The notes beneath the pieces were generated by a model. The model was not told the DNA's origin. It did not search any database and worked only from the letters and a program-made list of their open reading frames with translations. The position numbers were made by a program, and so were the translations under genes. Positions 1-36,041 of a stretch of DNA of 64,000 nucleotides are shown one piece after another; position 1 is the first letter of the stretch, and the number at the start of each line of letters is the position of its first letter. The stretch is from an uncultured Alphaproteobacteria bacterium (GTDB taxonomy: Bacteria > Pseudomonadota > Alphaproteobacteria > Caulobacterales > Caulobacteraceae). Location: NCBI GenBank assembly GCA_903909375.1, contig CAIVVM010000049.1, forward strand, positions 16,568-80,567, read 5' to 3'.

Positions 1-938
1 TCTTCGACGCCAGCTTTGTGGGCCAGGCCCGGACGATCGCAGTTGGCCAACAGGTCAGCTCTACCATCCACGTTTTTGCCGGCGCCAAACAGGAACCGGT
101 TCTCAAGGCCTATCAGGAGAAGCTGGGCGTCGCCCATCTGGACGAGGCGATCGACTGGGGCATGCTCTGGTTCATCACCCGGCCGATCTTCCAGTTCCTG
201 GCCTTCATCTTCCAGCACGTCGGCAATTTCGGCGTGGCCATCCTTTTGCTGACCGTTGTTGTGCGCCTGGTCTTCTTCCCGCTCGCCAACAAACAGTACG
301 AGTCGATGACCAAGATGAAGAAGGTACAGCCGGCGATGGAGGAGCTGCGCAAGACCTTCAAGGACGATCCGGCGCGCCAGCAGCAGGAGCTGATGGAACT
401 CTACAAGCGCGAGAAGGTTAATCCTCTGGCGGGCTGCTTCCCGATCCTCCTTCAGATTCCGGTGTTCTTCGCGCTCTTCAAGGTGCTGCAGATCAGCATC
501 GAAATGCGCCATGCGCCATTCTTCGGCTTCATCAAGGACCTGTCGGCGCCGGATCCGACGACGATCTTCAATCTGTTCGGCCTGATCCCCTGGGATCCGG
601 GCACGGCGCCCATGATCGGCAGCCTTCTGGCCTATGGTACGCCGCCGGGCTTCCTGCACATCGGCATCCTGCCGATTCTCTACGGGATCACCACCTGGCT
701 CACCACCTCGATGAGCCCGCCTGCGCCGGACCCGATGCAGCAGCGGATCTTCCAGCTGATGCCGATCCTGTTCACCTTCATCATGGCCCAGTTCGCCATC
801 GGCCTGCTGGTCTACTACACCTGGTCCAACATCCTGACCGCCATGCAGCAGTATGTGATCATGCGGCGCTTCAAGGTGGACAATCCCATCGACCAGCTGA
901 TCCGGCGGATCACGGGCAAGCCCGCGGAACTGACGTGA
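1..938 (+). CDS. yidC: Membrane protein insertase YidC, C-terminal part (5' end lies outside the window)
   Basis: Motifs [36 protein letters not shown] and QIPVFFAL. The reading frame is open from the window edge, so the ORF-track start at 18 is an internal Met. Confidence 0.95.
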
Positions 939-1582
939 GCGAACACTCCGTCGCCTTCGATGAAGAGGCGCTGGAGGCGGCGCGGGTGTTTTTCGCGCAT
1001 CCCGTCGCCTTCCTGATGGGCGCCGTCGCCATCGATGGTCTGCCTTCGACAGACTTGCCGGAAGTGGCCTTCGCGGGTCGTTCCAACGTGGGCAAGTCGT
1101 CGCTGATCAATGCGGTGACCGGACGCACCCATCTGGCGCGGGCCTCCACGGCGCCGGGACGCACCCGTGAGATCAACTTTTTCGTCTGCGACGAGACCCT
1201 GCGCCTGGTCGATCTGCCCGGCTACGGCTTCGCCAAGGTCAGCCGCGAAGCCAAGAACAAGTTCCAGAACCTGGGGCGCGCCTATCTGCGCGGCCGCCCT
1301 AACCTCAAGCGCGCCTATCTGCTGATCGACAGTCGTCACGGCCTGAAGGACGTGGATCTGGAGGCTATGGAGGCCTTTGATCTGGCAGCCGTTTCCTACC
1401 AGATCATCCTGACCAAGGCCGACAAGCTCAGCGCCCGCGATGTGGCCCAGGTCACCGCTGAAACCCAGCGCAAGATCGCCAAGCGTCCTGCGGCCTTCCC
1501 GCGGGTGCTGGCGACCTCTTCCGAAAAGGGTGGAGGCATTCCCGAGCTGCGCGCCGAGATCGTGGCGGCCTGCGCCGCTTGA
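935..1582 (+). CDS. yihA: Ribosome biogenesis GTP-binding protein YihA/YsxC (EngB)
   Basis: G1 motif [16 protein letters not shown] and TKADK; overlaps the yidC stop (GTGA). Confidence 0.95.
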
Positions 1583-1700
1583 TGCGGCCACCTCAGGTGT
1601 CGAACTTGTCCTTGCGGCGTTGGCCGAACAGGCGTTCGCCGCAAGGTGCGGATTGATGCAGACCTTGACGCCGCTACCCGCCCCGGAGAGGACGTAGGCC

Positions 1701-2717
1701 ATGACCGACCTCGCCCGTTTCATTCAGGGTCTGCCCAAGGCCGAGTTGCACCTGCACATCGAGGGGAGCCTCGAACCCGAGCTGATGTTCGACCTGGCTC
1801 GGCGCAACCGCATCAGCCTGCCGTTCGCCTCGGTCGAGGCGGTGCGCGCGGCCTATGCCTTCTCAAACCTGCAGGATTTCCTGGACATCTACTACCAGGG
1901 CGCCGGCGTCTTGATGACGGAACAGGACTTCCAGGACCTGGCCATGGCCTATTTCCGACGGGTAGCCGCCGACGGCTGCCGCCACGTCGAACTGTTCTTC
2001 GATCCCCAGACCCACACAGATCGCGGACTGCCGTTCCGGATCGCTATAGACGGGCTGCTGGCCGGTATGGCCGAGGCGGAGCGGACGCTCGGCGTCTCGT
2101 CCAGTCTGATCCTTTGCTTCCTGCGTCACCTGGATGAGGACGCGGCCTTCACGACCCTCAGGGAGGCAGAGCCTTATCTCGACCGCATCCTTGGCGTCGG
2201 CCTGGATTCCTCTGAAGTCGGCCATCCGCCGTCGAAGTTCGCGCGGGTGTTCGGGGCCGCCGGGGAGATGGGCCTGAAGCGGGTCGCCCATGCCGGTGAA
2301 GAAGGCCCGCCAGCCTATGTCCGGGAAGCGCTGGACCTGCTGCACGTGGACCGCATCGACCATGGCAATCGGGCGCTCGAGGATCCGGCGCTGGTGGCGC
2401 GGCTTGTGGCGGAGGGGATGACGCTGACGGTGTGTCCGCTGTCGAACCTCAAGCTCTGCGTCGTTGACGACCTGAAGGCGCACCCGTTGAAGCGAATGCT
2501 GGACCTCGGCCTCAAGGCCACGATCAACTCGGATGATCCGGCCTATTTCGGCGGGTACCTGGGACGGAACTGGACCGAGACAGCCCAGGCGCTTTCATTA
2601 TCGCGCGCCGAACTCGTCACCTTGGCGAAAAACAGCTTCACCGGCTCGTTCCTGCCGCCGGGTACGGTCAGTGACCATCTTGCCGGGATAGACGCTTATC
2701 TGTCTTCGAACTCGTAG
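1701..2717 (+). CDS. add: Adenine deaminase (adenosine deaminase fold)
   Basis: PKAELHLHIEG, FFDPQTH, AHAGEEGPP, RIDHG and NSDDPAYFGG; AYAFSNLQDFLDIYY resembles the Pseudomonas-type adenine deaminases. GGAGAGG RBS upstream. Confidence 0.9.
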   Translation: MTDLARFIQGLPKAELHLHIEGSLEPELMFDLARRNRISLPFASVEAVRAAYAFSNLQDFLDIYYQGAGVLMTEQDFQDLAMAYFRRVAADGCRHVELFFDPQTHTDRGLPFRIAIDGLLAGMAEAERTLGVSSSLILCFLRHLDEDAAFTTLREAEPYLDRILGVGLDSSEVGHPPSKFARVFGAAGEMGLKRVAHAGEEGPPAYVREALDLLHVDRIDHGNRALEDPALVARLVAEGMTLTVCPLSNLKLCVVDDLKAHPLKRMLDLGLKATINSDDPAYFGGYLGRNWTETAQALSLSRAELVTLAKNSFTGSFLPPGTVSDHLAGIDAYLSSNS

Positions 2718-3124
2718 AAGTACAGCACGAAAGGCTCCGCCTCTGACCCGCGCCCCTTGTAGAGCGCGCGTGCGGCCTCATTGTCGACTTCAGTGCCCAC
2801 CCAGGCTTCCTCGCACCCGAGACCGCGGGCCCAGTCCGTCAGATCGTCCAGCAAGCGGGTGGCTATGCCTTCGCGTTTGCGGTCGGGGGTGACGCCGAGA
2901 TTGTCGATGTAGAGTTCGGTGGGCGCGTCCGGGTGTCGATGCACGACACCGCGCGCCTGGCCAATGACCTCTCCGTTGAAAGTCGCAACGACCATAAGGT
3001 GCGAAGGGTCCCGCAGGTAGTGCGCCAGCCGGGCCAGATCGATCCGGTCGTCGAAGACGTCCTCTGCAACCCGATCCAGCAGATCGGCCTGAGCGGGCCC
3101 CACGCGTATGATCTGGACATCCAT
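2696..3124 (-). CDS. GNAT family N-acetyltransferase
   Basis: Acetyl-CoA motif LGVTPDRKREGIAT and NEAARALYKGRG; convergent overlap with add. Confidence 0.85.
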   Translation of the reverse strand: MDVQIIRVGPAQADLLDRVAEDVFDDRIDLARLAHYLRDPSHLMVVATFNGEVIGQARGVVHRHPDAPTELYIDNLGVTPDRKREGIATRLLDDLTDWARGLGCEEAWVGTEVDNEAARALYKGRGSEAEPFVLYFYEFEDR

Positions 3125-3210
3125 GCCGCTGACCTTAGGGTTCTCGTCAACTTTGTGAAGAGCGACGCGTTTGAGGTCTAACCTCGATCTGCAGCGCCAG
3201 GAGGACCCCG

Positions 3211-4422
3211 ATGATCAAACTTGCGACAGCCCTGCTCGCCGCCACGGCCCTGGCGAGCGCCGCCCAAGCCAGAACGATCGCGGTGGGGCCGGGACCCGAT
3301 GCGCAGGAGCGCATCCAGACGGCCCTGCTCGACGCAAAGCCGGGCGACACTGTGCAGTTCGCCGCCGGCCGCTATGAGCTGACGGACGGCCTGTCGCTGG
3401 ACGTGAACAATGTCACGGTCAAGGGCGCCGGCCCCGACGCTACGGTCTTGTCGTTCAAGGGGCAGAAAGGCGCCGGTGAGGGGCTGCTGATCACCTCGGA
3501 TCAGGTGACGGTCCGCGACTTCGCCGTCGAGGACAGTCGCGGCGACGGTATCAAGTCCAAGGGAGCTGACGAGATCAGCTTTCTGAACGTGCGGGTCGAA
3601 TGGACCGGCGGACCCAAGGAGACCAACGGCGCGTATGGCGTCTATCCGGTGGCGTCCACCAATGTGCTGATCGACCGGGTGGTGGTGCGCGGGGCGTCCG
3701 ACGCCGGGATCTATGTGGGCCAGTCGAAGAACATCGTGGTGAAGAACAGCCGGGCCGAGTTCAACGTGGCCGGGATCGAGATCGAGAACTCGATGAACGC
3801 CGATGTGTTCGACAATGTCGCCACCCGCAATACCGGCGGGATTCTGGTGTTCGACCTGCCCAACCTGCCGCAGATGGGCGGGCATTCCACCCGACTTTAC
3901 CGCAACAAGGTGGTGGACAACGACACGCCGAATTTCGCGCCCAAGGGCAATATCGTGGCGAGCGTGCCCACGGGCACCGGCATCATGGTGATGGCCAACC
4001 GCAACGTCCACGTCTTCGACAACGAAATATCGGGCAACCAGAGCACGGCGGTGATGCTGGTCAGCTACACGCGCACCTTCGACGACAAGAGCTACAATCC
4101 CCTGCCGCGCGATATCGTCGTACGGAACAACCGGATCGGGAAGAATGGCTGGGACCCGAAGTTCGACGGCGGCCCGATGATCGCCAAGCTGATGGGCGGC
4201 AGCCTGCCGCCGGTGGTCTGGGACGGCGTGACCACCATCGCGGGTTCGCCGGATGTGGCCCAGGTCCGGATCAGTGACGGTCCGGTGCTGAATCTCAACC
4301 TTCCCGGCCCGGGTCAGATCGAAAAGGCCCGCCCTTCCGTCGCCAAGACGGTCAGCGACGCGCAGATCGCGGAACCTGGCGCGGTGGTCCTGCCGAAGCG
4401 ACAGGCTGACCTCGGCGCATGA
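3211..4422 (+). CDS. Secreted parallel beta-helix domain protein (TIGR03805-like)
   Basis: Signal peptide; repeated beta-helix strands (DGIKSKGAD, NGAYGVYPV, GASDAGIYVGQS, NVAGIEIENS, NTGGILVFDLP). Confidence 0.85.
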   Translation: MIKLATALLAATALASAAQARTIAVGPGPDAQERIQTALLDAKPGDTVQFAAGRYELTDGLSLDVNNVTVKGAGPDATVLSFKGQKGAGEGLLITSDQVTVRDFAVEDSRGDGIKSKGADEISFLNVRVEWTGGPKETNGAYGVYPVASTNVLIDRVVVRGASDAGIYVGQSKNIVVKNSRAEFNVAGIEIENSMNADVFDNVATRNTGGILVFDLPNLPQMGGHSTRLYRNKVVDNDTPNFAPKGNIVASVPTGTGIMVMANRNVHVFDNEISGNQSTAVMLVSYTRTFDDKSYNPLPRDIVVRNNRIGKNGWDPKFDGGPMIAKLMGGSLPPVVWDGVTTIAGSPDVAQVRISDGPVLNLNLPGPGQIEKARPSVAKTVSDAQIAEPGAVVLPKRQADLGA

Positions 4423-5474
4423 AAGCCTGGCTTGCCGGACTGGCTGCGCTGCTGTGCCTTGGCGCCTCGCCGCCGCCGCCCGGTGTTGCACTTGATCTGT
4501 TGCTGGCCGAGACCCCGGCGCCGAAACTGGCGGACTACCGGCTGTTTACCGACGCCGCCGGCCGCAAGATCAACGCCGGCCTGACTCCCTACGCCCTGAA
4601 CACGCCGCTGTTCACAGACTATGCCGAAAAACTGCGGTTCGCCTGGCTGCCGCCGGGAACCCGGGCGCAGTACCGCGGCGACGAGGTCTTTGCGTTTCCG
4701 GTCGGGACCGTTCTGGTGAAGACTTTCGCCTATCCTGCGGACCTTCGAAAGCCAGCCGAAGGCGTCCGCTACATCGAGACCCGCCTGCTGATCCACAAGG
4801 CTTCGGGCTGGGTCGCGCAGACCTACCTCTGGAACCCGGAACAGACCGAAGCGGTGCTCAAGCGGGCCGGAGCGCGGGTCGACGTGGCCTTCGTCGACAA
4901 TCAGGGGCGTGCCCGCTCGGTGGACTACGCGGTTCCCAACCAGAACCAATGCAAGGAATGCCACCAGCTCGATGAGACGATCACGCCGATAGGACCCAAG
5001 GGACGAAACCTCAACGGCGTACTCGACTATTCCGGGGCGCCGGAAAACCAACTGGTCCACTGGACCCGCAAGGGCCTGCTGGCTGGCGCGCCATCGTCCG
5101 GGACGGCGCCGCGCACCGCGCGCTGGGATGATCCTGCCGAGCCCCTGGATCGGCGCGCCCGGGCCTACCTCGATGCCAATTGCGCCCATTGTCACAACCC
5201 TCGCGCGGTGGCCAGCAACTCCGGCCTGTTCCTTGGCGTCGACGAGACCCGGCCCGCAGCGCTGGGGATCGGGAAGGGGCCGGTGGCCGCCGGTCGCGGC
5301 TCTGGAAACCTGCAGGTTAGTATCGAGCCGGGACACGCGGAGGCCTCGATCCTGGCCTATCGGGTGGCGTCGAACGAGCCTGGTGTGATGATGCCCGAAC
5401 TGGGGCGCACCCTGATCCACGACGAGGGCGTCGCCCTGATCCGGGCCTGGATCGACGGAATGAAGCGCCCTTGA
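4419..5474 (+). CDS. SO2930-family dihaem c-type cytochrome (TIGR03806-like)
   Basis: Two CxxCH motifs (CKECH, CAHCH), NTPLFTDYAEK, FPVGTVLVKTF and MMPELGR; ATGA overlap with the beta-helix gene. Confidence 0.85.
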   Translation: MKAWLAGLAALLCLGASPPPPGVALDLLLAETPAPKLADYRLFTDAAGRKINAGLTPYALNTPLFTDYAEKLRFAWLPPGTRAQYRGDEVFAFPVGTVLVKTFAYPADLRKPAEGVRYIETRLLIHKASGWVAQTYLWNPEQTEAVLKRAGARVDVAFVDNQGRARSVDYAVPNQNQCKECHQLDETITPIGPKGRNLNGVLDYSGAPENQLVHWTRKGLLAGAPSSGTAPRTARWDDPAEPLDRRARAYLDANCAHCHNPRAVASNSGLFLGVDETRPAALGIGKGPVAAGRGSGNLQVSIEPGHAEASILAYRVASNEPGVMMPELGRTLIHDEGVALIRAWIDGMKRP

Positions 5475-30826: not shown

Positions 30827-32125
30827 ATGTCCGACGCCACCCTTCACCCGGAAACCCTGGTCGTCCACGCTGGATGGCGGGCTGATCCCTCGACGGGCTC
30901 AGTGGCGGTGCCGATCCACCAGACGACGTCCTACCAGTTCCGCGACGCGGGCCATGCCGCTGCGCTCTTCTCGCTGTCCGAGCTGGGCAACATTTACACC
31001 CGCATCATGAACCCCACGACCGACGTGCTCGAAAAGCGTGTCGCGGCGCTGGAGGGCGGCGTGGGCGCTCTGGCTGTGGCGTCCGGGCAGGCGGCGTCGG
31101 CCTATGCGGTCCAGAACCTGGCGCGGGCGGGCGACAACATCGTGTCGTCCACCGCCCTTTACGGCGGCACCTGGAACCTGTTCGCCAACACGCTGAAGGA
31201 CCAGGGGATCGAGGTCCGCTTTGTCGATCCTGCCGACCCGGAAGCCTTCCGCCGCGCCACTGATGACCGCACGCGCGCCTACTACGCCGAGACCCTGCCG
31301 AACCCGAAACTCGAGGTCTTCCCCATCGCCGAGGTCGCCGCCATCGGCCGCGAGTTCGGCATTCCTCTGATCATGGACAATACCGCAGCCCCGCTGCTCT
31401 GCCGGCCGTTGGATCATGGCGCAGCCATCGTGGTCTATTCCGCCACCAAATACCTTGGCGGCCACGGCACCTCCATCGGCGGCCTGATCGTCGACGGCGG
31501 CAATTTCGACTGGGAGGCGAACCCCGAACGCCAACCCCAGCTCAACACGCCCGACGCCTCATATCACGGCGCCGTCTGGACCCAGGCGGTCAAACCGCTC
31601 GGCCCCATCGCCTACATCCTGCGCGCCCGGGTGATCCTGCTGCGCGACCTGGGCGCCGCCATTTCGCCGTTCAACGCCTTCCAGATCATCCAGGGGATCG
31701 AGACCCTGGCGCTGCGGATGGAGCGCCATTGCGCCAACGCTACAAAGGTCGCCGCCTGGCTGGCCGCGCGCGCTGGCATTACTCGCGTGATCCACCCCAG
31801 TCTGCAGACCGGCGAGGCCCGCGCCCGCGCCGATCGGAATCTCAAGGGCGGCTATGGCGGCCTTGTGGGCTTCGAAATGGCCGGCGGGGTCGAGGCCGGC
31901 GCCGCCTTCATCAACGCCCTGAAGCTGCTCTACCACGTGGCCAACATCGGCGACGCGCGAAGCCTGGCGATCCACCCGGCCTCCACCACCCATTCCCAGC
32001 TCACGCCCGACGAACAGGCCGCCACCGGGGTGACGCCGGGCTACGTGCGCCTGTCCATCGGCATTGAGCACGTGGACGACATCATCGCCGACCTTGATCA
32101 GGCGTTGAAGGCCGCGGGGATCTAG
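30827..32125 (+). CDS. metY: O-acetylhomoserine sulfhydrylase (PLP-dependent)
   Basis: PIHQTTSYQF, IYTRIMNPT, ASGQAA, SATKYLGGHG and ANIGDARSL; start at MSDATL. Confidence 0.92.
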   Translation: MSDATLHPETLVVHAGWRADPSTGSVAVPIHQTTSYQFRDAGHAAALFSLSELGNIYTRIMNPTTDVLEKRVAALEGGVGALAVASGQAASAYAVQNLARAGDNIVSSTALYGGTWNLFANTLKDQGIEVRFVDPADPEAFRRATDDRTRAYYAETLPNPKLEVFPIAEVAAIGREFGIPLIMDNTAAPLLCRPLDHGAAIVVYSATKYLGGHGTSIGGLIVDGGNFDWEANPERQPQLNTPDASYHGAVWTQAVKPLGPIAYILRARVILLRDLGAAISPFNAFQIIQGIETLALRMERHCANATKVAAWLAARAGITRVIHPSLQTGEARARADRNLKGGYGGLVGFEMAGGVEAGAAFINALKLLYHVANIGDARSLAIHPASTTHSQLTPDEQAATGVTPGYVRLSIGIEHVDDIIADLDQALKAAGI

Positions 32126-33195
32126 AAGCCCAGCGGCCGGTAGGGTCCAAGGATCAGCTGTTCGAACACGCCCACACCCACCTGATCGTCCCGGCCCGGC
32201 TGTGACAGAGTGGCGCGGCTGATGGCCTGGATGTGCAGGTTGCCGGGATCGGCGTGGTCGAAGTTCACCGTGTCCAGGTCCTCGCGCGCCACGGCCAGCT
32301 CGCCCTTGAGCGCACCGTGCCGCCACTCACCGCCATAACCGATGCCGCGCATCAGGAAGGTGGCTACAGGCTCGATCTTCACGGTCGCCTCGCCCTGCGC
32401 CAGGGGGATGATCAGTTTGCCGGATTTTGCGTGGCGGGTGCCGGGCAGGATTTCGGTCTCCATCACCGGGGCGTCGGAGTGATAGCCGCCCTCGGGTCCT
32501 GCGCCGTCCGGCAGGATCACAGCGCGGGTGTTCCAGGGCTTGCCGTCCGGATCGGCGTTGATGTGGAAATAGACGGATGTGTCGGCGAAATTCAGCGGGG
32601 TCCATTGCCAGAAGAATCCGGCGATCCCACCGCCTGGAGTAGGCTGGGTGTCGGGCGCGCCGACAGGACGGATGCCCCAGGAGCGGTCGCGCGTACCGAC
32701 CCAGCCGGATACCTCGATCCGCTCGCCGTCCACTTCCAGCCAGCCTGAAGCCCGCACGTTCTGGGTCAGGCGGGTATAGTCCATGAACAGGCGCGGGCCG
32801 TTGCGCTTGACGAAGCGCGGCTCCTCGATGGGAAAGGCGCGGCCCTCGAAGGTGATCTCGCCGGCGATGCCTTCCGTCTTCTGGACCGTCACCTTCAGCT
32901 TCTGCAGGGGCTCCAGGATGTCGATGGCGATCGGCCCCACCTTCAGGTCCAGCCGTTCCATCCCCAGGACGCGCGAGGCGTGCAGGCAACGCTCCTTGCC
33001 GTCCTTGACGATGGCGATGTGCGCATCGGCCACGTTCAGCGCCGGATAGACCCCGAAGGCGATGGCCGCGAACGCCGACCCATCCGGCGCATAGGCGTTG
33101 AAGAAGTAGCGGTCGTAGAAGTTCCGGTCCGAACCTGAATAGGCGATCGGCTCGGGTGTCTGGTGGATCGGATAGTCATCACCCTTGGTCAGCAT
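32122..33195 (-). CDS. Conserved hypothetical protein with a probable AttH/CrtC-like beta-barrel
   Basis: DDYPIHQTPEP, NFYDRYFFN and GTRDRSWG; beta-strand-rich pattern; high-GC codon usage; divergent from the P450. Confidence 0.7.
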   Translation of the reverse strand: MLTKGDDYPIHQTPEPIAYSGSDRNFYDRYFFNAYAPDGSAFAAIAFGVYPALNVADAHIAIVKDGKERCLHASRVLGMERLDLKVGPIAIDILEPLQKLKVTVQKTEGIAGEITFEGRAFPIEEPRFVKRNGPRLFMDYTRLTQNVRASGWLEVDGERIEVSGWVGTRDRSWGIRPVGAPDTQPTPGGGIAGFFWQWTPLNFADTSVYFHINADPDGKPWNTRAVILPDGAGPEGGYHSDAPVMETEILPGTRHAKSGKLIIPLAQGEATVKIEPVATFLMRGIGYGGEWRHGALKGELAVAREDLDTVNFDHADPGNLHIQAISRATLSQPGRDDQVGVGVFEQLILGPYRPLGF

Positions 33196-33331
33196 CGCAC
33201 GGCGTCTCCGGTTGACGCGCGGTCACACTTGCGGGCCGTCGCGTTGGGGGTATCAACTCCGCTAAGGATACGAACAATCAGACGGCGTCGTCTCGCGTGA
33301 CCTCACGTCAGGCCGCCTCCCCGGAGACCAA

Positions 33332-34630
33332 ATGTCCGCCACCACCGCTGCCGACCACATGATCCCCCAGGCCCATGCCGATCATCTGGCGATGCCGGCG
33401 GCCTATGCCGACAACCGGATCCACGACACCTACCGATGGCTGCGCGCCAACGAGCCCATGGGCATGGCCAAGATCGACGGCATTGACCCGTTCTGGGTGG
33501 CCACCAAACACGCCGACATCCTCGAGATCAGCCGCCAGAACGACCTGTTCCACAATGGCGACCGCGCCGCGACTCTCACCAGCCAGGCGGCGGACAAGCG
33601 CGTGCGCGAGATGATGGGCGGCAGCCCGCACCTGCTGCGCACCCTGGTGCAGATGGACGCGCCGGATCATCCCAAGTACCGGGCACTGACCCAGGGCTGG
33701 TTCATGCCGCAGAACCTGAAGAAGCTGGAAGAGCGCATTCGCGTGATCGCCCGCGCCTCGGTCGACAAGATGGCGGCCAAGGGCGGCGAGTGCGACTTCG
33801 TCAATGAGGTGGCGCTGCACTTCCCGCTGCACGTGATCATGACCATCCTGGGCGTGCCCGAGAGCGACGAGCCGCGGATGCTGAAGCTGACCCAGGAACT
33901 GTTCGGCGCCACCGATCCCGAGCTTGGCCGCAAGCCGAATGAAGCGCCGGCTACCGAGACCGGCGAGCCAGCCTTCGACATGGGCGTGATCATCGATTTC
34001 AACAACTATTTCAGCGCTCTGTCGGCCGCGCGCCGCGCCAATCCCACCGATGATCTGGCCTCGCTGATCGCCAACAGCCAGATCAACGGCGCGCCCATCT
34101 CCGACTTCGAGGCCATGGGCTATTACATCATCGTCGCCACGGCCGGCCACGACACCACCTCGTCATCGACGGCCGGCGCCATGTGGGCGCTGGTGGACAA
34201 TCCAGGCCAGCTTCGCAAGGTGAAAGCCGACCTGTCGCTGATCCCGGGCCTGGTGGATGAATCCATCCGCTGGACCACCCCGGTGAAGACCTTCATGCGC
34301 ACGCTCACCGCCGACACCGAGTTCGCCGGCCGCCAGATGAAGCAGAACGACTGGCTGATGCTCTGCTACGCCTCGGGCAACCGCGACGAAGAGGTCTTCG
34401 AGGCGCCCGACGAGTTCCGCGTGGACCGCTCGCCCAACAAGCATCTGGCGTTCGGCTACGGCGCCCACCTGTGCCTCGGCCAGCATCTGGCCAAGATGGA
34501 GATGCGCATCCTCTGGGAAGAGCTGCTGCCCAGACTTGAATCCGTCGAGATGGCCGGGACGCCTGCCATGAGCGAAAGCTTCTTCGTCAATGGACCCAAG
34601 CGCCTGCCCATCCGCTTCCGGATGAGCTGA
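33332..34630 (+). CDS. Cytochrome P450, CYP108-like
   Basis: I-helix AGHDTT, K-helix ESIR and haem motif FGYGAHLCLG; GGAG RBS. Confidence 0.93.
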   Translation: MSATTAADHMIPQAHADHLAMPAAYADNRIHDTYRWLRANEPMGMAKIDGIDPFWVATKHADILEISRQNDLFHNGDRAATLTSQAADKRVREMMGGSPHLLRTLVQMDAPDHPKYRALTQGWFMPQNLKKLEERIRVIARASVDKMAAKGGECDFVNEVALHFPLHVIMTILGVPESDEPRMLKLTQELFGATDPELGRKPNEAPATETGEPAFDMGVIIDFNNYFSALSAARRANPTDDLASLIANSQINGAPISDFEAMGYYIIVATAGHDTTSSSTAGAMWALVDNPGQLRKVKADLSLIPGLVDESIRWTTPVKTFMRTLTADTEFAGRQMKQNDWLMLCYASGNRDEEVFEAPDEFRVDRSPNKHLAFGYGAHLCLGQHLAKMEMRILWEELLPRLESVEMAGTPAMSESFFVNGPKRLPIRFRMS

Positions 34631-34638
34631 GCCTCACC

Positions 34639-35661
34639 TTGGCCCACGCGCTGGAACCGCGGCTGGCGGCCTATGTCGCCGGTCGCATGCCGCAGGCGTC
34701 CGGCGTCACGGTCTCGAATCTGGAGCGCATCTCGGGCGGCGCCTCGAGGGAGACGTACCGGTTTGTATTGTCCTGGACCGAAGCCGGCCAACCCACGTCG
34801 CGCAAACTCATCCTGCGACGCGATCCGCCCGCCAGCCTGATCGATACCGAGCGCCGGGTCGAGTTCGAGGCCTATCGCGCCTTTCACGGCTCCTCGGTTC
34901 CCGTGCCGGACATGCTCTGGCTGGAAGAGGCCTCCGACGCCCTCGACCACCCCTTCTTCATCGCCGGCGAGATCGCGGGCTTCCAGGCGGGCCCCGCGGC
35001 CCTGTTCGCCGGCGCGACCGAGGCGGTCCTGGCCCGGGTGGCCGAGCGTAAATGGACCATCCTGGGCGACATCGCCACAGCCGACCCGGCGCCCCTGGCC
35101 GCCATCCTGCCCACGCCCGCGCTGGACGACTGTTGGCGTCGCGAACTCGACCACTGGGCGGGCCTCATCGCCCGCGACGCCGACCACCCCCTGCCGATCA
35201 CTGAGGCCGCCATCCGCTGGCTGCGCGCCAACCCGCCGCCAGCGGCCCAGCGCCTCTCCATCGTCCACGGTGACTATCGAACCGGCAATTTCCTGTTCGA
35301 CGCCCACGGCGATATCCACGGCGTCCTCGACTGGGAAATGGCCCATCTGGGCGATCCGCTGGAAGATCTGGGCTGGAGCCTGCAGCCGGTCTGGACCTTC
35401 GGACGCTCAGGGATGGCAGGCGGCCTCTGCCCACCCGCCCAGGCCGTCGCCATCTGGGAACGCGCCTCCGGCCTCGTCGCCGATCCGGCGGCGTTGCACT
35501 GGTGGACCCTGTTCAACTGCGTCAAGGGCCAGGGCATCTGGGTGGGATCGGCCGCCGCCTTCAACTCGGGCGGCAACCGCGCCCCGATCATGATCTATCC
35601 GGCCTGGTGGCTGATCAACGCCCAGGAGCGCGCCATGGCCCAACTGATGGGACGCCTGTGA
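34639..35661 (+). CDS. APH-family phosphotransferase, LvaA / ACAD10-11 kinase-like
   Basis: SGGASRET, LILRRDP, Brenner motif HGDYRTGN, VLDWE and GDPLEDLGW. Confidence 0.85.
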   Translation: MAHALEPRLAAYVAGRMPQASGVTVSNLERISGGASRETYRFVLSWTEAGQPTSRKLILRRDPPASLIDTERRVEFEAYRAFHGSSVPVPDMLWLEEASDALDHPFFIAGEIAGFQAGPAALFAGATEAVLARVAERKWTILGDIATADPAPLAAILPTPALDDCWRRELDHWAGLIARDADHPLPITEAAIRWLRANPPPAAQRLSIVHGDYRTGNFLFDAHGDIHGVLDWEMAHLGDPLEDLGWSLQPVWTFGRSGMAGGLCPPAQAVAIWERASGLVADPAALHWWTLFNCVKGQGIWVGSAAAFNSGGNRAPIMIYPAWWLINAQERAMAQLMGRL

Positions 35662-36041
35662 CCCCGCCCACATCCGACGTCCTGCGTGAACTGGCCGCGC
35701 TGCTGCTGCGCAACGCCGCCCCCGGCGTGCCGGATGGCGAGCGCGCCAATGCGCTGGGCCTCACCGCCACCCTGCTGAACATCGCCGCCGAAACCTGGGA
35801 TGCCGCCGCCCACAATCTGGTGGAAGAGAACCGCGCGATCCGTGCCCTATTGGCCGAGACCGGCAATGACCCCGCCCTGCACCTCTCCGTCCTTCAGGCC
35901 GAGAACAACCGCCTTCGGTCCGCCCTCATCGGTCTCCACGCCCGCGCGGAGGCCGAGGGCGACGAGCCACTCCAGGCCCGCATCTGGGCCGAACTGATCG
36001 CCGGAACGGAGCGCCGCAGCCTCTCTACCGCGCCTATCTAG
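35658..36041 (+). CDS. Small all-helical protein, possible LvaB-like kinase partner
   Basis: GTG start overlaps the kinase stop (GTGA); 127 aa amphipathic helices (TPPTSDVLRELAALLL...LLNIAAE). Confidence 0.65.
   Translation: MTPPTSDVLRELAALLLRNAAPGVPDGERANALGLTATLLNIAAETWDAAAHNLVEENRAIRALLAETGNDPALHLSVLQAENNRLRSALIGLHARAEAEGDEPLQARIWAELIAGTERRSLSTAPI

Follow-up and report, generated by a model that had tools for sequence, protein, structure and literature searches.

The window, a stretch of 64,000 nucleotides from the genome of an uncultured alphaproteobacterium of the family Caulobacteraceae, features a cluster of genes encoding a homologue of 25-phosphosteroid lyase (25-PSL), a cytochrome P450 of family CYP108, a kinase of the aminoglycoside phosphotransferase (APH) fold and a small helical protein (Table 1). 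A preliminary description of this DNA covered the last three genes. The gene that is divergent from the P450 gene also belongs to the unit, which consists of four genes and not three. Across Alphaproteobacteria, the genes for the lyase homologue, the kinase and the small protein are conserved together as a triad with translational coupling, and the P450 is a later, clade-specific addition to this older module. Judged from sequence and gene order, the triad is probably a two-subunit kinase and a phospho-lyase that spend ATP to dehydrate a hydrophobic alcohol, itself probably tertiary and isoprenoid, and the P450 would act either earlier or later than these enzymes.

The conserved lyase-kinase-small protein triad

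In the window the P450, kinase and small genes are read as open reading frames (ORFs) on one strand. The P450 gene ends with a TGA stop codon at 34628–34630 and is separated from the kinase gene by 8 bp (34631–34638). The small gene starts with GTG at position 35658, within ctGTGAcc, and overlaps the kinase stop codon by 4 nucleotides. The coordinates of the ORFs bear out the tight linkage given in the preliminary description, an 8-bp gap followed by a GTGA overlap. The lyase gene is divergent from these three genes and lies 136 bp upstream of the P450 gene.

The triad was mapped in 57 loci that were retrieved by a profile search of genomes with the small protein. The lyase gene clusters with the kinase and small genes in 48 of these 57 loci, and some of the other loci are truncated where the retrieved sequence ends. 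The overlap of 4 nucleotides between the kinase stop and the small gene start (ATGA or GTGA) is found in 49 of 54 loci. Outside the two genera in which the P450 is linked, the genes are arranged in the order lyase, kinase, small gene on one strand, and 31 such triad-only loci come from many families, including genomes of 1.6–1.8 Mb. At the junction of the lyase and kinase genes, the triad-only loci that were checked have either an overlap of 1–4 nucleotides or a gap of 3–14 nucleotides. Neither an acyl-CoA dehydrogenase (ACAD) nor a hydroxylase is part of the triad in these other genera, with the exception of a locus, L099, that is described below, and the surroundings of these loci are mutually unrelated.

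The distribution of the triad is patchy. The small-protein profile matches 16 of 401 Alphaproteobacteria genomes, 82 of 201 Caulobacteraceae genomes and 17 of the 18 other sampled genomes of the window's genus, and the triad is present in 10 of 27 Caulobacteraceae genera. A phylum-wide genome sample gave no match to the small protein beyond the window's own order.

Several genes that stand near the triad in some loci were considered as further parts of the unit and rejected. These include a gene for a DUF423 membrane protein upstream of the lyase gene (17 loci), alpha/beta-hydrolases within about 3 kb (14 loci), an MFS_1_like transporter (11 loci) and an ArsR-type helix-turn-helix protein (8 loci), whose homologues in the window's genome, where found, are on other contigs. 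A DUF35/ChsH2-like OB protein together with an SCP-x-type thiolase, found in 14 loci of the window's genus, was rejected as well, and the homologues are on contigs C12 and C19. The MFS_1_like genes are found in several families and are located downstream of the small gene, in some loci directly (L030, L032, L037, L064, L067, L070, L071, L075, L077, L078 and L080). The DUF35/ChsH2-type and SCP-x-type thiolase-like genes are located 0.1–4 kb past the small gene (L042, L044, L045, L048–L050, L052 and others).

The lyase homologue

The product of the divergent gene matches the NCBIfam model NF053593, 'Rv3169 family protein', over residues 2–348 with an E-value of 8e-115 and 383.6 bits, where the cut-off is 150. 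This is the family of 25-PSL; it is also represented by Pfam DUF7065/DUF7064, and there are more than 5,000 matches for Rv3169 family/DUF7065. A profile of the lyase family retrieves PDB entries 9fzn, 9g2i and 9g4c, which were deposited as 25-PSL and released in January 2026, with an E-value of 1.3e-79. The single sequence from the window matches 25-PSL with an E-value of 7.6e-44 and 35% identity over 301 amino acids. The AlphaFold (AF2) model of the protein is all-beta with a predicted local distance difference test (pLDDT) score of 86, and Foldseek aligns it over its full length with 9g4c, 9fzn and 9g2i at template modelling (TM) scores of 0.83–0.86, the two-barrel fold being common to both proteins. 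Entry 9g4c holds phosphate and desmost-1,4-diene-3-one. The second-ranked folds for the model are fungal decalin Diels-Alderases, with a TM score of about 0.5.

An alignment of the lyase family revealed that 32 of the 37 family-invariant residues are identical in 25-PSL. The residues that are invariant in the family and kept in 25-PSL include all of the invariant Asp, Glu, Arg, His and Gln residues and the RDRSWGxRP motif. The conserved positions include D6, H11, Q12, D23, D28, R29, E125, R131, R135, D139, R142 and Q145, and the block R169-D170-x-S172-W173-G174-x-R176 is identical in 25-PSL. The lyase homologue, and not an ACAD, is likely to be the eliminating enzyme. The preliminary description had suggested looking in the genome for a partner of the LvaC type, but the adjacent 25-PSL homologue is a more likely candidate for this step than a distant ACAD of that type. 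The same description stated correctly that no dehydrogenase of this type is adjacent to the genes; within the window, the only ACAD gene is found some 19 kb from the cluster, at approximately 13.1–14.0 kb.

A distant second paralogue of the lyase family (22% identity, E-value of 2.5e-7) is located on contig C47 of the same genome (2088–3197, minus strand). It overlaps the start of an ORF of 618 amino acids (266–2122, minus strand), and no kinase gene adjoins it. The N-terminus of this ORF appears by eye to be like that of a Baeyer-Villiger-type monooxygenase.

The kinase

The kinase matches Pfam APH with an E-value of 1e-30. Its translation features the motifs ISGGASRETY, LILRRDPP, IVHGDYRTGNF, GVLDWEMAH and LGDPLEDLGW, which hold all of the motifs listed in the preliminary description (SGGA, LRxD, HGDYRTGN, VLDWE and GDPxEDLGW). 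The catalytic HxDxxxxN loop (HGDYRTGN) and the Mg-binding aspartate of the DWE motif (VLDWE) are both kept. The relatives of the kinase in the PDB, 9o56, 9fsg, 3dxp, Rv3168 (3ats) and mouse ACAD11 (8v3v), have E-values of 1e-10 to 1e-14; all of them are of the ACAD10/11 type and at similar distances, in agreement with the assignment of the kinase to the LvaA/ACAD10-11 branch. Four paralogues of the kinase are found in the genome, the closest of which is a DUF6285-partnered kinase on contig C52 (31% identity, E-value of 6e-28). The kinase tree resolves three distinct clades with good support, one made up of the triad kinases (support 99/97), one of the DUF6285-partnered kinases and one of the 3dxp-like kinases.

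The kinase gene appears to start with TTG at position 34639, and there is no obvious Shine-Dalgarno sequence. The equivalent position in kinase homologues is an ATG start codon (e.g., MSLEPRIAAY... in locus L006).

The small partner protein

The small ORF is a real gene, because its profile matches 441 cluster representatives at 50% identity (mostly about 148 amino acids long), its AF2 model of four helices is confident (pLDDT 92.7) and its overlap with the kinase stop codon is conserved. The protein has no match in Pfam or NCBIfam. It does not match Pfam DUF6285 (PF19802) even at E-values up to 10, and 0 of 60 family members match this model. A sequence search of the PDB was empty, the best Foldseek match in the PDB has an E-value of about 1, and the PDB features no DUF6285 structure for comparison.

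Profile-profile alignment with hhalign pointed to a relationship to DUF6285, with an outcome that depends on the depth of the DUF6285 profile. A shallow profile of 20 near-identical sequences from Phenylobacterium alone gave a probability below 1%, the addition of eight more distant sequences gave 57%, and a profile of 32 sequences from several classes gave 92.3% with an E-value of 5e-7 over 69 columns (residues 3–72), with both N-termini in register. The controls for this match gave 1.0% for the reversed profile and at most 1.3% for 30 column shuffles. The C-terminal half of the small protein has no alignment to DUF6285. Remote homology between the small protein and DUF6285 is therefore probable for the first two helices. 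The preliminary description called the protein LvaB-like, and LvaB is a DUF6285 protein. This label is tentatively right with regard to the position of the gene, the helical structure and the alignment of residues 3–72, but it is not supported by the Pfam DUF6285 model or by the C-terminal half.

The CYP108 P450 and its linkage to the triad

The P450 matches Pfam p450 and, by phmmer, P450terp (1CPT/8EUH) with an E-value of 1e-139, P450tol with 4e-122 and CYP108D1 (3tkt) with 5e-120. Its identity to P450terp (CYP108A1) is 51% over 419 aligned residues, and its translation features the haem-thiolate loop FGYGAHLCLG, the I-helix motif ATAGHDTTSS and the ExxR motif ESIRW. The CYP nomenclature assigns a protein to a family at 40% or more amino-acid identity to a named member and to a different subfamily below 55%. 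By this rule the P450 classes as a member of the CYP108 family, as the preliminary description had recognised, and as one of a subfamily other than that of P450terp, because 51% is below 55%. There is no ferredoxin or reductase gene beside the P450 gene. The genome encodes 11 P450 genes and 6 Fer2 ORFs, and every Fer2 ORF is on a contig other than that of the window.

Among the genomes sampled from two Caulobacteraceae genera, 23 of 23 have the P450 gene next to the triad, so its linkage is not sporadic, although it is specific to a clade. In the window's genus, the lyase gene is divergent from P450, kinase and small genes in 17 of 17 sampled genomes. In the second genus (g328, loci L058–L063), the order P450, kinase, small gene is found in 6 of 6 sampled genomes. 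These three genes are divergent from a set made up of a second kinase gene, a DUF6285 gene, an ACAD gene and the lyase gene, and the lyase gene starts 6 bp after the ACAD gene (e.g., L058:6001-12437). The kinase tree places the P450-linked kinases in one clade (support 97/98), in which the kinase of a locus without a P450, L008, is nested; this indicates that the P450 joined the triad once and was later lost in L008.

Genes for CYP108 (E-value up to 1e-100) are present in 79 of 82 triad-positive Caulobacteraceae genomes and in 12 of 119 triad-negative genomes. By genus, such a P450 is present in 9 of the 10 that have the triad, out of 27 genera overall (hypergeometric p = 2e-5). None of these figures is corrected for shared ancestry. 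In other triad-bearing genera, the CYP108 genes have 60–69% identity and are located away from the triad, and these unlinked genes have no neighbours in common. Two genomes feature a CYP108 gene that is divergent from a trio of second kinase, DUF6285 and ACAD genes; elsewhere the gene is solitary, apart from L099. In locus L099 (L099:5010-10102), a second and divergent triad, whose genes run kinase, small gene, lyase, is located downstream of a CYP108 paralogue (59% identity). The kinase and the lyase of this second triad are 45% and 39% identical to those of the window, respectively, and L099 is an independent linkage of a P450 to a triad with a different gene order.

The proposed mechanism

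From the homologies, the coupling of the genes and the phyletic pattern, we infer a scheme in which the kinase and its small DUF6285-related partner form a complex that moves the gamma-phosphate of ATP onto a hydroxyl group of a hydrophobic substrate. The best guess for this substrate is a tertiary isoprenoid-type alcohol, because a tertiary carbon, such as that of 25-phosphosteroids, is chemically the easiest site for flavin-free direct elimination. The lyase, presumably sharing its substrate with the kinase, would then expel the phosphate and form a C=C bond. The net reaction would be an ATP-driven dehydration of an alcohol that is not directly oxidisable or dehydratable. LvaB is reported to bind LvaA.

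The CYP108 P450 would work on the same substrate, and there are two options for its place in the order of steps. It may make the alcohol, in which case P450, kinase and lyase together would bring about a net desaturation. Alternatively, it may hydroxylate the allylic methyl group of the alkene product, as P450terp does on alpha-terpineol and as the molybdenum enzyme S26DH does after 25-PSL. P450terp hydroxylates an allylic methyl group, and its substrate alpha-terpineol bears a 2-hydroxyprop-2-yl group, as do 25-hydroxysteroids, so that the P450 may follow the lyase or precede the kinase. The preliminary description proposed a route of hydroxylation, phosphorylation and elimination in which the P450 installs the hydroxyl group. 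The logic of this route is plausible, but the hydroxylation step need not be that of the P450: most triads have no linked hydroxylase, the 31 triad-only loci being without a P450, and the alcohol therefore need not come from it. The preliminary description proposed hydroxyacyl-CoAs for assays of the kinase, but nothing indicates a hydroxyacyl-CoA or another CoA ester as its substrate.

A wider formulation is put forward more tentatively, and with less than even confidence. The triad would be a general flavin-free, ATP-driven alcohol dehydratase in which the two known systems of phosphorylation and elimination are combined, with a two-subunit kinase of the LvaAB type and a lyase of the 25-PSL type. 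Joined by CYP108, it would give aerobes a route for tertiary alcohols of the terpenoid or sterol-side-chain kind. Either O2, NAD(P)H and ATP would be spent on a net desaturation of C-H to C=C, or a tertiary alcohol would be isomerised by way of an alkene to an allylic alcohol, in parallel to the cholesterol cascade of anaerobes.

Comparison with known systems

The chemistry itself is already known. In the anaerobic degradation of the cholesterol side chain by Sterolibacterium denitrificans (S. denitrificans), a molybdenum hydroxylase forms the tertiary 25-alcohol, the APH-like 25-hydroxysteroid kinase (25-HSK) phosphorylates the C25 hydroxyl group, and 25-PSL, the final enzyme of this ATP-dependent dehydration, expels the phosphate to give a delta-24 alkene, whose allylic C26 is hydroxylated next (PMC8449060, PMC11061730). 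The preliminary description knew of no account of its combination of P450 and kinase pair, but the chemistry is not undescribed, since this sequence of hydroxylase, 25-HSK and 25-PSL is established. The S25DH/25-HSK/25-PSL/S26DH cascade (PDB 9fzn, 9g2i and 9g4c for the lyase) and the window's cluster both feature an APH-type kinase, a two-barrel lyase of the same family (35% identity, TM score of 0.86) and a hydroxylase, and the strategy of phosphorylating an unreactive alcohol and eliminating phosphate to give an alkene is predicted from the genes to be the same. Among the differences are an O2-dependent CYP108 P450 in place of the molybdenum enzyme and a host that is an aerobic alphaproteobacterium, like Phenylobacterium to judge by the names of its closest database homologues.

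A second set of relatives consists of LvaA, LvaB and LvaC from the levulinate operon of Pseudomonas putida and the ACAD10/ACAD11 fusions (PDB 8v3u/8v3v), in which the ACAD eliminates the phosphate (PMC11342911). The kinases belong to the same superfamily branch, and the predicted strategy of phosphorylation followed by elimination is shared. As in the levulinate operon, a gene for a small helical partner is directly downstream of the kinase gene, and about 70 N-terminal residues of the partner are probably related to DUF6285 (92% with the broadest profile). In contrast to these systems, the triad has no ACAD, and elimination is assigned to a lyase predicted to be flavin-free. The partner is also not recognised by the hidden Markov model of DUF6285, and the triad kinases form a clade that is separate from that of the DUF6285-partnered kinases.

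P450terp, the alpha-terpineol hydroxylase of Pseudomonas, as well as P450tol and CYP108D1, are in the same CYP family as the window's P450, which has all of the P450 signature motifs. The P450terp operon holds the genes for terpredoxin, its reductase and dehydrogenases, whereas the window's P450 gene has no ferredoxin, reductase or dehydrogenase gene nearby and is operonic with a kinase gene.

The Rv3168-Rv3169 pair of Mycobacterium tuberculosis (M. tuberculosis) also features an APH-type kinase (3ats, E-value of 4e-11) that adjoins a member of the same lyase family, and the NCBIfam family is named after Rv3169. From the gene numbering we take the order of this pair to be kinase then lyase, and we know of no small partner or P450 at this locus.

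The literature that was searched yielded no paper describing the structure of 25-PSL, DUF6285 or a cluster of P450, kinase and lyase genes. What differs here from the known systems, as predicted from the genes, is the combination of an LvaAB-type two-gene kinase with a PSL-type lyase, the clustering of the genes, the O2-dependent CYP108 and the aerobic host.

Tertiary alcohols such as alpha-terpineol, linalool, 25-hydroxysterols, diplopterol, geosmin and 2-methylisoborneol are not oxidisable to ketones and block breakdown of the beta-oxidation type, and the sole characterised bypass by phosphorylation is that of one anaerobic cholesterol degrader. If the proposed mechanism is true, the presence of such a P450-linked gene cluster in aerobes that are common in soil and water would show that this chemistry is widespread. 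It would also assign a function to the large, unannotated Rv3169 family/DUF7065, to the unnamed family of helical partners and, by extension, to Rv3168-Rv3169 of M. tuberculosis, and it would provide a compact enzyme set for regioselective alkene formation.

Evidence against the proposed mechanism and alternative explanations

There are several observations that weigh against the proposed dehydration and the part of the P450 in it. The kinase is no nearer to 9fsg, a possible 25-HSK, than to the ACAD-type kinases. The next-nearest folds of the lyase model are the Diels-Alderases, so a different chemistry is possible for this protein. Recombinant 25-HSK from S. denitrificans is highly active from a single gene with no partner reported, whereas the kinase here has a small coupled partner, and the S. 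denitrificans kinase and lyase genes are not neighbours, there being no lyase candidate near the kinase gene (PMC8449060), whereas the genes are clustered here. Genes for a ferredoxin, a reductase, a regulator and a transporter are all absent from the window's cluster. The triad locus stands without a P450 in almost all of the other genera sampled, and the P450 may for this reason be only loosely connected to the triad. The statistics on the co-occurrence of triad and CYP108 are uncorrected for phylogeny.

One alternative retains the chemistry but assigns it to housekeeping. In this explanation the triad clears endogenous isoprenoid lipids (hydrated hopanoids, carotenoids, quinone side chains) of stray tertiary hydroxyl groups, in metabolite repair or biosynthesis, and the P450 is a separate, lineage-specific add-on. 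This is consistent with the self-contained operon and its unrelated, non-catabolic surroundings, including those in genomes of 1.6–1.8 Mb, with the position of the window's triad between metY and dapE/truA/fmt, and with the finding that, L099 excepted, hydroxylase genes are not recurrent neighbours of the triad in genera other than the two with a linked P450. However, the patchy occurrence of the triad among Alphaproteobacteria and Caulobacteraceae genera is unlike that of a core repair function, in 11 loci the small gene is followed by an MFS_1_like transporter gene, a hint that the substrate is imported, and the co-occurrence of triad and CYP108 is strong. We regard the housekeeping role as unlikely.

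The second alternative is an LvaAB pair whose substrate is a 4-hydroxyacyl-CoA that the P450 helps to form, and in which an ACAD of the LvaC or ACAD10-11 type encoded elsewhere eliminates the phosphate and the lyase gene is an incidental neighbour. A search of the genome for an LvaC partner revealed a set of genes on contig C52 (approximately 600–5000) that consists of a kinase gene (2532–3527, minus strand), then a DUF6285 gene (approximately 2179–2535, minus strand; Pfam E-value of 3e-28), which is the sole match of a genome-wide Pfam DUF6285 scan, and a divergent gene for an ACAD of 449 amino acids. By its gene content this is a canonical LvaABC-like set, complete with a kinase. The PDB matches of the C52 ACAD are those of an ordinary ACAD; ACAD11 ranks low among them, and the protein has no special likeness to it. 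The type of the kinase, the remote likeness of its partner to DUF6285 and the C52 ACAD beside a kinase-DUF6285 pair all agree with action on a 4-hydroxyacyl-CoA, as does the trio of second kinase, DUF6285 and ACAD genes that is directly beside the P450-kinase-small operon of the sister genus (6 of 6 genomes) and that, in two further genomes, stands by itself divergent from the P450 gene. This explanation is nevertheless quite improbable: the ACAD has a dedicated kinase and DUF6285 partner, the former in a separate clade, the companion of the triad kinase in 48 of 57 loci is the lyase and no ACAD, the C52 ACAD is ordinary, and the cluster has no acyl-CoA ligase. The triad/P450 loci repeatedly adjoin the trio, which suggests that the two systems of phosphorylation and elimination may act in a single pathway.

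A drug- or xenobiotic-inactivating phosphotransferase of the aminoglycoside or macrolide type, with the P450 as a general detoxifier and the lyase-like and small proteins as unrelated neighbours, is highly improbable, since the weak NCBIfam matches of the kinase to macrolide, capreomycin and APH(3') phosphotransferases (E-values of 1e-3 to 1e-5) span the catalytic loop only and miss the curated cut-offs at least 10-fold, and since the kinase is, in many genera, closely coupled in translation to the small protein and the lyase, as would be expected of a multi-step pathway, even though Rv3168 was deposited as a putative aminoglycoside-resistance enzyme.

Locus layout and surroundings

Table 1. 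Features of the cluster, in positions of the window.
Feature	Position	Strand	Length and basis
25-phosphosteroid-lyase homologue (Rv3169 family; weak DUF7065 match)	32122..33195	-	357 aa; proposed phosphate-eliminating C-O lyase; NCBIfam, PDB profile match, AF2/Foldseek
Divergent intergenic region, lyase to P450 operon	33196..33331	.	136 bp; presumed shared promoter region, from gene layout only
Cytochrome P450, family CYP108	33332..34630	+	432 aa; Pfam p450, PDB sequence matches
APH-fold small-molecule kinase, LvaA/ACAD10-11 type	34639..35661	+	340 aa, TTG start; Pfam APH, PDB relatives
Small four-helix partner protein, unnamed family remotely related to DUF6285	35658..36041	+	127 aa; AF2, hhalign

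A consensus scan for promoters and terminators in the spacer between the lyase and P450 genes gave no sigma-70-like site and nothing else of use, and a search for inverted repeats found none inside it. The flanking genes are housekeeping genes by Pfam and NCBIfam scans, metY being located upstream, whereas dapE, an AIM24-family gene, truA and fmt are on the downstream side. The guanine plus cytosine content of the window is about 67%.

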